From a phage: a DNA stretch of 38,751 nucleotides. The stretch lies in the sequence record PZ465525.1; one strand, given 5' to 3'. A program made the translations under genes and the position numbers. The notes under the pieces are model-generated. The model did no database searches. It was not told where the DNA came from and worked only from the letters and a program-made list of their open reading frames with translations. Shown in pieces: positions 33,300 through 37,690 of the stretch. Numbering within the stretch: the first letter of the stretch is position 1; each line of letters begins with the position of its first letter.

Positions 33300-35258
33300 A
33301 TGATTGTCTCAGACATCGAATCAAACGGCCTACTTGAGACCACTACTAAATTCCATTGCGCGGTTATCTATGACTACAGTACAGGAGAATACAGCAAGTA
33401 TCGCCCTGTGGACTTTAATAAATACCTTGACGCATTAGAAGCTGAGGTAGCAAAGGGAGGACTCATAGTAGGACATAACTTCGCTAAATTTGACATCCCT
33501 GCGTTAACCAAGTTGGCTAAGTTGCAATTGAACCGAGAGTTCAACATTCCTCGTGAGAACTGTGTGGATACCCTCGTGCTGTCCAGACTGATTCACTCGA
33601 ACCTCAAGGACACCGATATGGGTCTCCTGCGCTCCGGTAAACTGCCGGGCAAACGCTACGGTTCCCACGCTCTGGAAGCATGGGGCTACCGCTTAGGCGA
33701 AATGAAGGGTGAGTACAAGGACGACTTCAAGGCTGCTCTTGAGGAGCAAGGTGAGGAGTACGTTGAGGGAATGGAGTGGCGCTCATTCAACGAGGACATG
33801 CTGGCCTATAACGTTCAGGACGTTGTGGTCACTAAGGCCCTCCTTGAGAAGCTACTTTCCGACAAGCACTACTTCAAGCCTGAGGTGGACTTCACGGATG
33901 TCTCTGCGGATACCTTCTGGATGGAGGCTATCGAGGCGATTGACGTGGAGCACCGAGCCGCTTGGTTGCTCGCTAAGCAGGAGCGCAACGGCTACCCGTT
34001 CAACACCAAGGCTATCGAAGACCTGTACGTTGAGCTGGCCTCTCGCCGCTCTGAGTTGCTGAAGCGACTGACCGAGACGTTCGGCTCTTGGTATCAGCCT
34101 AAGGGTGGCACCGAAATGTTCCTACACCCACGCACTGGTCAGCCGCTCCCGAAGTATCCGCGAGTGAAGACCCCGAAGGTCGGAGGCATCTTCAAGAAGC
34201 CCAAGAACAAAGCCCAGCGCGAAGGTCGTGAGCCCTGTGAGCTGGACACTCGGGACTTCGTTGCTGGTGCCGTTTACACTCCGGTGGAGCACGTTGTCTT
34301 CAACCCTTCGTCCCGCGACCACATCCAGAAGAAGCTCCAAGAGGCTGGCTGGGTGCCCGAGAAGTTCACCGATAAGGGTGCTCCGGTAGTGGACGACGAG
34401 GTGCTTGAAGGCGTTGTTGTGGACGACCCTGAGAAGCAAGCAGCCATCGACCTCATTAAGGAGTACCTGATGATTCAGAAGCGAATCGGTCAGAGTGCTG
34501 AGGGCGACAAGGCGTGGCTGCGCTACGTTGCGGAGGACGGTAAGATTCATGGTAGCGTTAACCCTAACGGTGCGGTTACTGGTCGTGCCACTCACGCCTT
34601 CCCGAACCTTGCGCAAATCCCAAGTGTTCGGTCTCCGTATGGCGAACAGTGCCGTGCTGCATTCGGGGCTGAACACCATCTTGATTACGTCACTGGGGAA
34701 CCTTGGGTTCAAGCTGGTATCGACGCATCCGGTCTTGAGCTGCGCTGCTTGGCCCACTTCATGGCTCGATTCGACAACGGCGAGTATGCCCATGAGATTC
34801 TGAACGGTGACATTCACACCAAGAACCAGTTGGCTGCCGAGCTGCCGACCCGAGACAACGCCAAGACCTTCATCTACGGTTTCCTCTATGGGGCCGGAGA
34901 CGAGAAGATTGGTCAGATTGTTGGTGCTGGTAAGGAACGCGGTAAGGAACTCAAGAAGAAATTCCTTGAGAATACCCCTGCGATTGCTGCGCTCCGTGAG
35001 TCCATCCAATCGACTCTCGTTGAGAGTTCCCAATGGGTGGCTGGTGAACAGCAAGTCAAGTGGAAGCGCCGTTGGATTAAGGGCATGGATGGCCGTAAGG
35101 TTCACGTCCGTAGCCCACACGCTGCGCTGAACACTGTGCTGCAATCCGCTGGTGCGCTTATCTGCAAGCTGTGGATTATCAAGACCGAGGAAATGCTCAT
35201 TGAGAAGGGCTACAAGCACGGCTGGGATGGAGACTTTGCGTACATGGCATGGGTGCAT
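33300..35258 (+). CDS. 5: gp5 DNA polymerase, exon 1 (codons 1-653)
   Basis: Near-identical to T7 DNA polymerase through ...GWDGDFAYMAWVH, then drops into 8 unrelated codons and a stop (35282); the real coding sequence resumes at 35861. Confidence 0.93.
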
Positions 35259-35860
35259 AAACTATCTCATTGTGCACGTTAAATCTGGTGAACTCGGTGA
35301 AACCCTTCTGGGGGCAATACCGAGCCAAGCCATAGGGAGGATATATGAGAGGCAAGAAGTTAATCCTTGCGACCACAGAGAGTGGTTGTATCATCCCTAC
35401 GTCACACAAACTTAATGCTGATGGTTATTTCCGAAAGAAGACGAACGGTGTCCTAGAGATGTATCACAGGACAGTCTGGAAGGAGCACTACGGAGATATA
35501 CCAGAAGGGTATGAAGTAGACCATAGGTGTAGGAACAGGGCGTGCTGTAACGTAGAGCACCTTCAGTTACTAGAAGGTTCTGAGCATACAGTAAAGACAA
35601 ACAGGGAACGCTACGCTGACCGTAAAGAGTCCGCGAAGGAATACTGGTTGGAGACTGGATGCACAGGAACACACTTAGGTGAGAAGTTTGGTGTAACGTT
35701 CTCTGCAGCTTGTAAGTGGATTAGAGAGTGGAAGGCGTAGAGACTATCCGAAAGGAGTAGGGCCGAGGGTGAGACTCCCTCGTTACCCGAAGCGCCAGAC
35801 AGTCAACTCAAAGACTGATGATATAGTCCGACACTCCTAGTAATAGGAGAATACAGAAAG
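35259..35860 (+). mobile_element. Group I-type self-splicing intron interrupting gene 5 at polymerase motif C, carrying an HNH homing endonuclease ORF
   Basis: 602-nt insertion between the H and DE codons of the conserved VHDE motif; exon 1 ends in T (35258) and the insert ends in G (35860); GTGCAC at 35272-35277 can pair with the exon end GTGCAT to form P1 with a U-G pair at the splice site; downstream helices (GACTAT/ATAGTC, GAGGG/CCCTC, GGAGT/ACTCC) present. Confidence 0.85.
35345..35740 (+). CDS. Intron-encoded HNH homing endonuclease
   Basis: 131-aa ORF with RBS GGGAGG; HNH/zinc motif ...EGYEVDHRCRNRACCNVEHLQLLEGSEHTVKTN... Confidence 0.88.
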   Translation: MRGKKLILATTESGCIIPTSHKLNADGYFRKKTNGVLEMYHRTVWKEHYGDIPEGYEVDHRCRNRACCNVEHLQLLEGSEHTVKTNRERYADRKESAKEYWLETGCTGTHLGEKFGVTFSAACKWIREWKA

Positions 35861-36016
35861 GATGAGATTCAAGTAGGTTGCCGTACCGAAGAGATTGCTC
35901 AGGTAGTCATTGAGACCGCCCAAGAGGCTATGCGCTGGGTAGGCGAGCACTGGAACTTCCGGTGTCTGCTGGATACCGAAGGCAAGATGGGGCCTAACTG
36001 GGCCGTGTGCCACTAA
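35861..36016 (+). CDS. 5: gp5 DNA polymerase, exon 2 (C-terminal 51 codons)
   Basis: In-frame continuation DEIQVGCRTEEIAQVVIETAQEAMRWVGEHWNFRCLLDTEGKMGPNWAVCH*, matching the T7 DNA polymerase C-terminus; joined product is 704 aa, the T7 length. Confidence 0.9.
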   Translation, partial: DEIQVGCRTEEIAQVVIETAQEAMRWVGEHWNFRCLLDTEGKMGPNWAVCH

Positions 36017-36036
36017 TACGACTCACTAAAGGAGAC
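36014..36036 (+). promoter_or_regulatory. Phage RNAP promoter overlapping the gene 5 stop codon (drives 5.5-5.7-5.9-6)
   Basis: TAATACGACTCACTAAAGGAGAC: class II-type variant (CACTAAAGGAG); the TAA stop of gene 5 is its first three bases. Confidence 0.8.
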
Positions 36037-36040
36037 CACT

Positions 36041-36343
36041 ATGGCTATGACCAAACGATACAAAGTAACCTTCGAGATTACCGCGAAGCTGGCCACCAAG
36101 GAGGTGGAGACGTTCACCAATGGTCTTATCGAGACCTCTCGCAAAATCGTTGAAGGTAAACCCGTTAACCCAGAACTTCGTGCTTGCGTAATGGCTGCCC
36201 TTGAGGGAGGCGTTGAGGCCGCTGTTGAGTGCGTCTATCGCCGTGGTGTTCGTGAACTGATTCGCGATGCCTACAACGAAATGTGCAGCGAAGAACGTGC
36301 AGCCACTAAGTTCTCACCAGCAACCGTGGAGGTGTTGAAATGA
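36041..36343 (+). CDS. 5.5: gp5.5 (H-NS-binding protein homologue)
   Basis: 100 aa starting MAMTKRYKVTFEITAK..., ending ...SPATVEVLK, like T7 gp5.5 (99 aa, recalled). Confidence 0.85.
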   Translation: MAMTKRYKVTFEITAKLATKEVETFTNGLIETSRKIVEGKPVNPELRACVMAALEGGVEAAVECVYRRGVRELIRDAYNEMCSEERAATKFSPATVEVLK

Positions 36344-36549
36344 GTGAGTACATCAAGGTTCTTCAAGCAATCAAGGGCTGCCCTAAGTCCTTTCAGTCTA
36401 ACTACGTGCGGAACAATGCGAGCATCGTTGCGGAGGCCGCTTCCCGTGGGCACATTTCGTGCCTGACTACCGGTGGCCGTAACGCTGGGGTCTGGGAGAT
36501 TACCGCATACGGTGTCCAATTCCTTGACGAAATGGGAGGTTGCGTATGA
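36340..36549 (+). CDS. 5.7: gp5.7 protein
   Basis: 69 aa, MSEYIKVLQAIKGCPKSFQSNYVRNNASIVAEAASRGHISCLTTGGRNAGVWEITAYGVQFLDEMGGCV, near-identical to T7 gp5.7 (recalled). Confidence 0.92.
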   Translation: MSEYIKVLQAIKGCPKSFQSNYVRNNASIVAEAASRGHISCLTTGGRNAGVWEITAYGVQFLDEMGGCV

Positions 36550-36776
36550 GCGTCCGTAAGAGCTGGAATGACGAGGTGGTCTCTATGACTGCCGAAGCAT
36601 GGAACGAGACCTTGAAGAACATCAAGGAACTCGAAGACCGCATTGAGGAGCTTGAGCAGATTCTGGCTGACCATGAAGAAAACGTTGCGTTCCTGTATGC
36701 GCTGGAAACTGCTGGCGTGGACAACTGGGATGGCTACGAGCTTGCTTGCAAGATTTACAAAGGGGAGGGTTTCTGA
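36546..36776 (+). CDS. gp5.9-like acidic protein (probable RecBCD inhibitor / DNA mimic), longer than the T7 version
   Basis: 76 aa from ATG 36546 (RBS GGGAGG); acidic (WNDE..., LEDRIEELEQILADHEENVAFL) resembling T7 gp5.9 (52 aa, recalled) plus ~25 extra C-terminal residues. Confidence 0.65.
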   Translation: MSVRKSWNDEVVSMTAEAWNETLKNIKELEDRIEELEQILADHEENVAFLYALETAGVDNWDGYELACKIYKGEGF

Positions 36777-37690
36777 TGGCTGTGCTGAGTCTAAAAGAGT
36801 TCCGCGATATGCGCGAAGGCTGCGACGGTAAGGGCATCCTTGTGATGGATGGCGACTGGCTGGTCTTTCAAGCAATGAGTGCCGCTGAGTTCGATGCCTC
36901 TTGGGAGGAGGAGATTTGGCACCGCTGCTGTGACCACGCTAAGGCCCGTCAGATTCTTGACGACTCCATCAAGTCCTACTCAACCCGCAAGAAGGCGTGG
37001 AACGGTGCGCCTATCGTTCTAGCCTTTACGGACACCATCAACTGGCGCAAGGAGCTGGTTGACCCGACCTACAAGGATAACCGGAAGGCCACCAAGAAGC
37101 CAGTTGGCTACTTCGAGTTCCTTGACGCCCTGTTCGAGCGTCCTGAGTTCTACTGTGTGCGCGAGGACAAGCTGGAAGGTGATGACGTTATGGGCATCAT
37201 TGGGTCTAACCCCAGTGCCTTTGGCGCTCGCAAGGCGGTCATTATCTCCTGCGACAAGGACTTCAAGACCATCCCTGACTGCGATTTCCTGTGGTGTACC
37301 ACTGGGAACATCCTGACTCAGACCCAAGAGTCTGCCGATTGGTGGCACCTGTTCCAGACCATCAAGGGTGACATAACCGATGGCTACTCTGGGATTGCTG
37401 GCTGGGGAGACTCCGCTGAGGGCTTCCTCAATGACCCGTTCATAACCGAGCCTCAAGTCTCCATATTGAAGTCCGGTAAGAACAAAGGGCAGGAGGCCAC
37501 TAAGTGGGTCAAACGCGCTCCTACCGAATCTGAGACGCTGTGGGACTGCATCGTGTCGATCGCTGCGAAAGCTGGGATGACCGAGGAGGATGTTATTAAG
37601 CAAGGCCAGATGGCCCGCATCCTTCGGTTTAACGATTACAACATCGACACCAAGGAGATTACGCTATGGAGACCTTCGGCATCGTTCTGA
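36776..37690 (+). CDS. 6: gp6 5'-3' exonuclease
   Basis: Start at ATG 36776 (TGATG overlap with 5.9; ORF-track TTG 36746 is upstream); ...EGCDGKGILVMDGDWLVFQAMSAAEFDASWEEEIWHRCCDHAKARQIL... near-identical to T7 gp6 (recalled). Confidence 0.96.
   Translation: MAVLSLKEFRDMREGCDGKGILVMDGDWLVFQAMSAAEFDASWEEEIWHRCCDHAKARQILDDSIKSYSTRKKAWNGAPIVLAFTDTINWRKELVDPTYKDNRKATKKPVGYFEFLDALFERPEFYCVREDKLEGDDVMGIIGSNPSAFGARKAVIISCDKDFKTIPDCDFLWCTTGNILTQTQESADWWHLFQTIKGDITDGYSGIAGWGDSAEGFLNDPFITEPQVSILKSGKNKGQEATKWVKRAPTESETLWDCIVSIAAKAGMTEEDVIKQGQMARILRFNDYNIDTKEITLWRPSASF

Follow-up and report, generated by a model that had tools for sequence, protein, structure and literature searches.

Introduction

The cryo-EM structure of RecBCD bound to gp5.9 of bacteriophage T7 (PDB 8B1R; Wilkinson et al. 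2022, PMC9836394) revealed a parallel coiled-coil dimer with a short N-terminal sheet brace, in which acidic residues form ion pairs that imitate the phosphates of DNA. The short β-sheet brace of the dimer is formed by the T7 strand DLVTIPRD, which contacts the RecB/RecC core, and the ion pairs to RecB/RecC involve D4, D11, D15, D21, E24, E36, D38, E39, and E45 (PMC9836394). RecB residues R254, R255, and R761 are contacted alike by DNA, gp5.9, and Gam. Only N-terminal tags have been reported to impair inhibition by gp5.9, and T7 gp5.9 does not inhibit AddAB (PMC9836394). The substitution L23P in T7 gp5.9 abolishes triggering of the retron Ec48. T7 gp5.9 also binds MukE and inhibits MukBEF (PMC7617805), and it activates type III Sir2-HerA (PMC13434337), so members of this family can have several targets.

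Here, we analysed a gene in the position of gene 5.9 in a T7-like phage genome. Its product combines a coiled-coil rod of T7 length with a C-terminal module that T7 gp5.9 does not have. The gene itself is of little consequence, being the candidate against RecBCD that one would expect in a T7-like phage; what remains of interest is the uncharacterised module, built around the motif GVDNWxGY.

Results

The stretch of DNA analysed (hereafter the window; 38,751 nucleotides, sequence record PZ465525.1) is a T7-like phage genome of the genus Teseptimavirus. Between positions 36000 and 37700 it shares 96–97% nucleotide identity with the phages avDM11-UST, PZL-Ah1, vB_AroA_KFSA9, IME15, and Ebrios. 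With gene 5 at 33.3 kb and large ORFs of late-gene size filling the first 20 kb, the window (1–38751) looks like a complete genome of ~38.7 kb, written, it seems, as a circular permutation of the T7 order.

The gene of interest, gene 5.9, lies on the plus strand at 36546..36776 and comprises 76 codons and a stop codon, beginning with ATG. By inspection of the sequence, a ribosome-binding site GGAGG (36535–36539, plus strand) is located 6 nt before this ATG, within the 3' end of the upstream gene. A TTG start at 36540, given in the ORF-finder listing, was ruled out because it is too near the ribosome-binding site. The upstream neighbour on the same strand is gene 5.7 (36340..36549; 69 aa; phrog_1334, E 5.8e-38), labelled 5.7 in IME15 and itself preceded by gp5.5 (PF11247, phrog_1452). 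Downstream, also on the plus strand, follows the gene 6 5'-3' exonuclease (36776..37690; 304 aa), which has ~81% nucleotide identity to T7 gene 6, a weak match to PF02739, and the label exonuclease in all relatives. With 5.7 upstream and gene 6 downstream, the ORF occupies the 5.9 slot. Its ATG overlaps the stop codon of 5.7 (ATGA) and its stop codon overlaps the ATG of gene 6 (TGATG): gene 5.9 is translationally coupled to both neighbours, as is usual for this gene block. Three minus-strand ORFs overlapping the gene (157, 74, and 71 aa) had no PHROG match and were dismissed.

The encoded protein is acidic (pI 4.26, net charge −11, 18 Asp and Glu against 7 Lys and Arg). Residues 9–74 match PF25708 (Phage_T7_Gp5_9) with 46.4 bits, above the gathering cut-off of 24.5 (E 3.8e-12), and the protein matches phrog_4790 ("host RecBCD nuclease inhibitor") with E 6.6e-25. 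Together with the slot between 5.7 and gene 6, these above-threshold profile scores make it a member of PF25708/PHROG 4790. The ORF is intact and of the same length in six related genomes. Among T7-like phages it belongs to the IME15/Ebrios/avDM11 clade, as that clade's orthologue of gene 5.9: avDM11-UST, an Aeromonas phage, encodes a protein (UYD60875.1) that is 100% identical over 76 aa, and the proteins of IME15 (YP_006990225.1) and Ebrios (YP_009799407.1), with the RefSeq label "host RecBCD nuclease inhibitor", are 87–89% identical. Overall, the orthologues in avDM11-UST, Aeromonas PZL-Ah1, vB_AroA_KFSA9, Stenotrophomonas IME15, and Escherichia Ebrios have the same 76-aa architecture at 87–100% identity and differ from the window protein by few substitutions, mainly in the module flanks. 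The labels "host RecBCD nuclease inhibitor" on the vB_AroA_KFSA9, IME15, and Ebrios orthologues were given by homology only. Identical or near-identical proteins carrying the RecBCD-inhibitor label are thus already in GenBank and RefSeq, and the gene is already known. A preliminary description, made from the sequence alone, had read the ORF as a gene for an acidic, gp5.9-like protein in the 5.9 slot, which agrees with the coupling signals, the neighbours, and the family matches; the 52 aa that it gave for T7 gp5.9 are correct, and its functional label coincides with the one already used in public records.

Other features of the region were noted in passing. Between gene 5 and gene 5.5 (window 36016–36041), gene 5.3 is missing, as it is in IME15; the counterpart region of T7 holds a 357-nt gene 5.3. 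A group I intron of ~603 nt (window 35258–35860; RF00028, 37.7 bits, E 1e-7, full model length, Rfam match 35249–35850) interrupts the DNA polymerase gene 5 after ...MAWVH and carries an HNH homing endonuclease ORF at 35345–35740 (phrog_6254, E 2.2e-46). Exon 2 restarts with DEIQVGCR... at ~35861 and ends at ~36016. Gene 5 is uninterrupted (2115 nt) in the five closest relatives, and the intron is 97–98% identical to that of Escherichia phage 13a and of about 40 other records. By these comparisons it is a known mobile intron of recent acquisition.

In a direct comparison, the window protein resembles T7 gp5.9 only modestly: BLASTP aligned nothing between the two, and only 12 of 52 residues are identical. 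We used instead Smith-Waterman alignment, scored against composition-preserving shuffles of the T7 protein. An ungapped alignment of 41 residues, pairing window residues 10–50 with T7 residues 4–44 (offset +6), scored 49 compared with 26.2 +/- 5.1 in shuffles (z = 4.4), a score reached by 5 of 5000 shuffles. By this alignment, residues 9–16 (DEVVSMTA; 36570..36593, plus strand) are the counterpart of the T7 N-terminal strand and presumably form a strand as well; the AlphaFold2 (AF2) monomer model gives them as helix, not strand. Residues 17–53 (36594..36704, plus strand) follow as an acidic heptad-repeat helix, delineated by the heptad register, by contact mapping, and by the AF2 model. Its a and d positions are W19, T22, I26, L29, I33, L36, L40, H43, V47, and L50; L29 corresponds to the L23 of T7 gp5.9 and is conserved. 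The register over ~5 heptads is identical with T7 and stops at E54/G57, where the module turns.

With the +6 offset, the T7 ion-pair residues map to E10, E17, E21, K27, E30, D42, E44, E45, and Y51. Seven of these nine positions are acidic, compared with at most five at any other offset (shuffle P = 0.00025). The two contacts lost are T7 D21, replaced by K27, and T7 E45, replaced by Y51, which stands in for the residue pairing with RecB R254. The window protein is therefore homologous to that portion of T7 gp5.9 which binds RecBCD (residues 1–49, the N-terminal strand and the coiled coil) and has acidic residues at positions that pair with Arg and Lys of RecB/RecC.

A bridge between the two proteins came from P0014, a 54-aa gene 5.9 (L009:3001-3165) in the 5.9 slot of a T7-like contig of 40.5 kb (Logan DRR848634). 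P0014 aligns with the window protein at z = 21 and with T7 gp5.9, over its full length, at z = 11, and the three proteins have the a/d register in common. Over its first ~37 residues, P0014 hardly differs from the window protein; its 3' end (QLQEATDYITELEYKHG) belongs to the T7 type. By these alignments, P0014 puts the homology between the window rod and T7 gp5.9 on a firm footing. At the DNA level, the window and the P0014 contig are similar up to about codon 37 and unrelated beyond. That the similarity ends there is evidence for a modular swap of the gene's 3' half.

Residues 48–76 of the window protein (FLYALETAGVDNWDGYELACKIY, that is AFLYALETAGVDNWDGYELACKIYKGEGF, beginning AFLYALETAGVDNWDGYELACKIY; 36687..36773, plus strand) constitute a GVDNWxGY helix-turn-helix module according to the PF25708, PHROG, and AF2 results. 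Scanned by itself, this segment reaches 41.9 bits on PF25708 (E 9.2e-11); residues 1–47 alone gave no PF25708 match. The whole of T7 gp5.9 scores only 27.8 bits, close to the cut-off of 24.5, and neither half of it was detected by the Pfam scan. The Pfam match of the window protein thus rests wholly on a module that T7 gp5.9 is without; comparison of the module with T7 gp5.9 found no similarity (z = −0.5). The module has no name of its own and is covered by PF25708 positions 20–45 and by phrog_6234, phrog_6163, and phrog_14858, all three of which it matches; the PHROG matches span residues 41–68. The window protein shows the motif [FL]L-x-AL-x-x-x-GVDNW-x-GY-x-x-A as FLYALETAGVDNWDGYELA, matching its nearly invariant columns. 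In an alignment of 85 sequences, L50, L53, G57, V58, D59, N60, W61, G63, Y64, and A67 reach a conservation of 90% or more.

Many other phage proteins carry the module. It is found in 143 records of phiYeO3-12/Berlin-type phages, and an exhaustive HMMER search with the window protein against 1.84 billion cluster representatives retrieved 106 clusters at E <= 1e-3, nearly all of which match query residues ~25–74, the heptad helix followed by the module. Annotated phages carrying it infect Yersinia, Klebsiella, Erwinia, and Escherichia as well as Enterococcus, Bacillus, and Acinetobacter. The module is autonomous, occurring as a single copy, in tandem without a coiled coil (P0025, P0050, P0054, P0062, P0072, P0079, P0098, P0099, P0102, and P0109–P0111, among others), after other N-terminal domains, and fused to an exonuclease. 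In the fusion, a 261-aa protein of Bacillus phage PK-1 (WYD68268.1; L097:1862-2647), a DEDDh 3'-5' exonuclease domain is followed at the C-terminus by a heptad helix and a GVENWSGY module (PF00929, E 5.5e-24; PF25708, E 4.5e-9), an arrangement that may hint at the role of the module. The genomic neighbourhoods of four distant module proteins, on short contigs with unannotated small genes, gave no consistent partner or functional hint.

These comparisons change how the C-terminus is to be seen. The preliminary description had regarded the protein as a divergent gp5.9 with an extra tail, an emphasis that is not borne out by the module's own profile score, its presence in the 59–60 aa gp5.9 of phiYeO3-12, phiSG-JL2, and Berlin, and its occurrence in ~100 other clusters. 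Judged by sequence conservation, the tail is a hallmark of the family and its most conserved part, not a new extension, and T7 gp5.9, having lost the module, is a truncated outlier. The proposed extra length of ~25 aa holds in that ~26 C-terminal residues have no T7 counterpart, similarity ending at ~50, but the difference in length of 24 residues is made up of 6 at the N-terminus and 18 at the C-terminus.

The AF2 model of the monomer, based on the 85-sequence alignment, is of moderate confidence (pLDDT 75, pTM 0.43, with pLDDT 89–90 at residues 21–40) and places a helix at 2–56, a loop at 57–60 (GVDN), and a second helix at 61–72. A Foldseek search of the PDB with this model found no match. 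As a proxy for paired modules, we modelled the tandem two-module protein P0102, which was predicted as a compact four-helix domain (pLDDT 93.4, pTM 0.75), a model that shows two modules can pair. A significant structural neighbour of this domain was not found in the PDB. Sequence searches of the PDB with the single protein and with the 85-sequence profile retrieved generic coiled coils only (GCN4 etc.), neither gp5.9 nor a module-like chain.

By sequence comparison, three forms of gp5.9 can be distinguished: a long rod with the module in the window, a long rod without it in T7, and a short rod with it in phiYeO3-12. T7 gp5.9 (52 aa) resembles the window protein in its slot, in the strand motif (VVSMT in the window, LVTIP in T7) followed by W-N, and in its pI (4.08 against 4.26), whereas the window protein has 6 more N-terminal residues and a module of ~26 residues in place of the last ~8 of T7. 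The gp5.9 proteins of phiYeO3-12 and phiSG-JL2 (Teetrevirus) and of Berlin, Yepe2, and Kvp1 (Berlinvirus), with 59–60 aa, share the slot, an N-terminal motif (TMTRDAWND), and the module (FLNALKACGVDNWDGYSDAVEM), and are 42–45% identical to the window protein (z = 17). They differ by a single 14-residue gap, placed by local and MAFFT alignment, at exactly two heptads of the coiled coil, residues 35–48 (ELEQILADHEENVA; 36648..36689, plus strand). These heptads are present in the window protein, T7 gp5.9, and P0014 and missing from the 59–60 aa proteins of the phiYeO3-12/phiSG-JL2/Berlin type, where the module would stand ~2 nm nearer the N-terminal brace. Residues ~9–30 (DEVVSMTAEAWNE..IKELE) are common to the T7 and phiYeO3-12 types.

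The gp5.9 of phage T3 (NC_003298, T3p31; L098:993-1151) is a 52-aa protein of the T7 type, one substitution from T7 and without the module, in contrast to the 60-aa module-bearing form of its close relatives phiYeO3-12 and phiSG-JL2. The short form should therefore not be called T3-type. The published gp5.9 tests used the T7 protein or the T7-type T3 protein (T3: PMC13192584). We had considered the experiment with "T3 Gp5.9 in trans" (PMC13192584) as in vivo support for module-bearing proteins and rejected it, because the T3 protein is of the 52-aa T7 type; published experiments with T3 Gp5.9 are hence uninformative on module-bearing proteins. A literature search found no experiment on any module-bearing member of the family, only annotation transfers.

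Lambda Gam is the other DNA mimic that blocks RecBCD. It is an acidic, helical dimer that sits in the same DNA site of RecBCD (PMC9836394), likenesses that the window protein would share as a predicted dimer. The two are related neither in sequence nor in fold, and no lambda Gam family is among the listed Pfam matches of the window protein. More generally, lambda Gam, Ocr, and Abc2 gave no Pfam or PDB sequence match, and Foldseek against the PDB found nothing. The only match to a family named Gam was a weak, sub-threshold one of P0014 to the unrelated Mu Gam family.

The 5.9 slot is variable and a hotspot for gene replacement. We surveyed 75 T7-like IMG/VR loci, anchored on gp5.7, with a simple ORF caller. 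After 5.7, the T7 type of 52 aa was found in 16 loci, the phiYeO3-12 type of 59–60 aa in 5, further proteins with the module (54 and 74 aa) in 2, and the window type in 1, which is IME15 itself; the remaining loci have unrelated small ORFs or no ORF recognised by the simple caller. The unrelated ORFs (in loci L031-L085, on contigs mostly of 40–41 kb) are of 66–68 aa (MKDFLG...), 94 aa, 127 aa, and 54–58 aa. Only one small clade has the 76-aa form. Among the six genomes of this clade, gene 5.9 has a pN/pS of 0.64, above those of gene 5.7 (0.07), gene 6 (0.08), and gene 5.5 (0.32); it thus changes more quickly than its neighbours, in line with the fast evolution that the preliminary description ascribed to phage DNA-mimic inhibitors. 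Within residues 48–76 it rises to 0.87, yet AGVDNWDGY is unchanged in all six genomes.

Discussion

We consider the window protein to be a mimic of the T7 gp5.9 type that would act on RecBCD through its rod and would carry the C-terminal module as a cap; this explains the observations best, and we give it somewhat better than even chances. Inhibition of RecBCD by DNA mimicry is the best-supported mechanism by sequence comparison, and the retained heptad register and seven of nine acidic contacts make a RecBCD-blocking DNA mimic a reasonable functional call, one that would rest on the rod and not on the module. The pN/pS of 0.64 indicates weak constraint on much of the protein and counts against it, as do the two lost contact positions, the modest direct similarity to T7, and a Pfam match that comes from the module.

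According to this mechanism, two chains would pair in parallel as a coiled coil, with a short β-sheet at the N-terminus as its brace and with Asp and Glu on the surface imitating the phosphates of DNA. The dimer would fill the duplex-DNA binding site of the host RecBCD, its N-terminus at the RecB/RecC core and its distal coiled coil on the RecB arm, and the linear phage genome might thereby escape degradation. The architecture is a composite of a coiled coil of T7 length and the conserved GVDNWxGY helix-turn-helix module. The two modules of the dimer could pack as a small four-helix cap at the end of the rod pointing away from RecBCD, where they might stabilise the dimer and lengthen its acidic surface. 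Such a C-terminal cap is sterically plausible, because the distal end lies on the outward RecB arm and only N-terminal tags impair inhibition.

The module may do more than cap the rod. Bacillus and Enterococcus hosts use AddAB/RexAB. Since the module is common in phages of such hosts and T7 gp5.9 does not inhibit AddAB, the module is unlikely to be a RecBCD-specific element, and the label of RecBCD inhibitor is doubtful for proteins that consist of the module only. We tentatively propose, as a possibility to which we give clearly less than even chances, that the GVDNWxGY hairpin is an autonomous, widespread, and uncharacterised phage mini-domain, which a single query already traced to ~100 clusters at 50% identity. 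As T7 gp5.9 is without it, the hairpin would be dispensable for RecBCD mimicry and would lend the window protein an additional property, be it another target or a dimer cap that is obligatory. If so, the T7 structure that has been solved would represent its family in an atypical, truncated form, and the RecBCD-inhibitor label would be unfounded on the module-only proteins of Bacillus, Enterococcus, and Acinetobacter phages.

Another explanation, which we regard as rather unlikely, retains the acidic, dimeric coiled-coil mimic but directs it mainly or additionally at a different machine that binds DNA, for example MukBEF or a defence system that senses DNA, with the module giving specificity. 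The actions of T7 gp5.9 on MukE and on Sir2-HerA are precedents. The fastest-evolving positions of the window protein are the module flanks around an invariant core motif, and the slot is hypervariable among T7-like phages, as expected in an arms race. However, the RecBCD contact residues are kept well above chance, and the conserved residues of the module (G, V, W, G, Y, L, A) resemble a structural core, not a binding surface; direct evidence of another target was not found for the window protein.

It is less probable still that the module is the functional unit with a host-independent role, for instance docking onto one of the phage's own replication or recombination proteins or serving generic dimerisation, so that the protein would not primarily be an inhibitor of a host nuclease and the label would have spread from T7 via a motif that T7 is without. 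The module alone carries the Pfam score, occurs as a single copy, in tandem without a coiled coil, and in the PK-1 DEDDh fusion, is present in phages of Gram-positive, actinobacterial-looking, and Acinetobacter hosts, and has no significant structural match in the PDB. In the window, however, it follows a segment that is collinear with all of T7 gp5.9 that binds RecBCD, the same N-terminal part exists in P0014 as a stand-alone gene with a T7-type end, and the neighbourhoods of module proteins lack a consistent partner. Lastly, a chance or non-functional reading frame, to which the small size and the relatively high pN/pS might point, can practically be discounted in view of the identical length in six genomes, the coupling signals, the strong family matches, and the invariant AGVDNWDGY.

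With RecBCD mimicry by the rod as the favoured explanation, the consequences lie mainly with the family. The Pfam and PHROG models respond chiefly to a motif that is absent from the only characterised member (T7, and identically T3). In hundreds of cases, phages of AddAB hosts among them, the label "RecBCD inhibitor" therefore rests on an uncharacterised module. The window protein joins a full T7-like rod to this module and offers a handy natural construct with which to probe the module's contribution.
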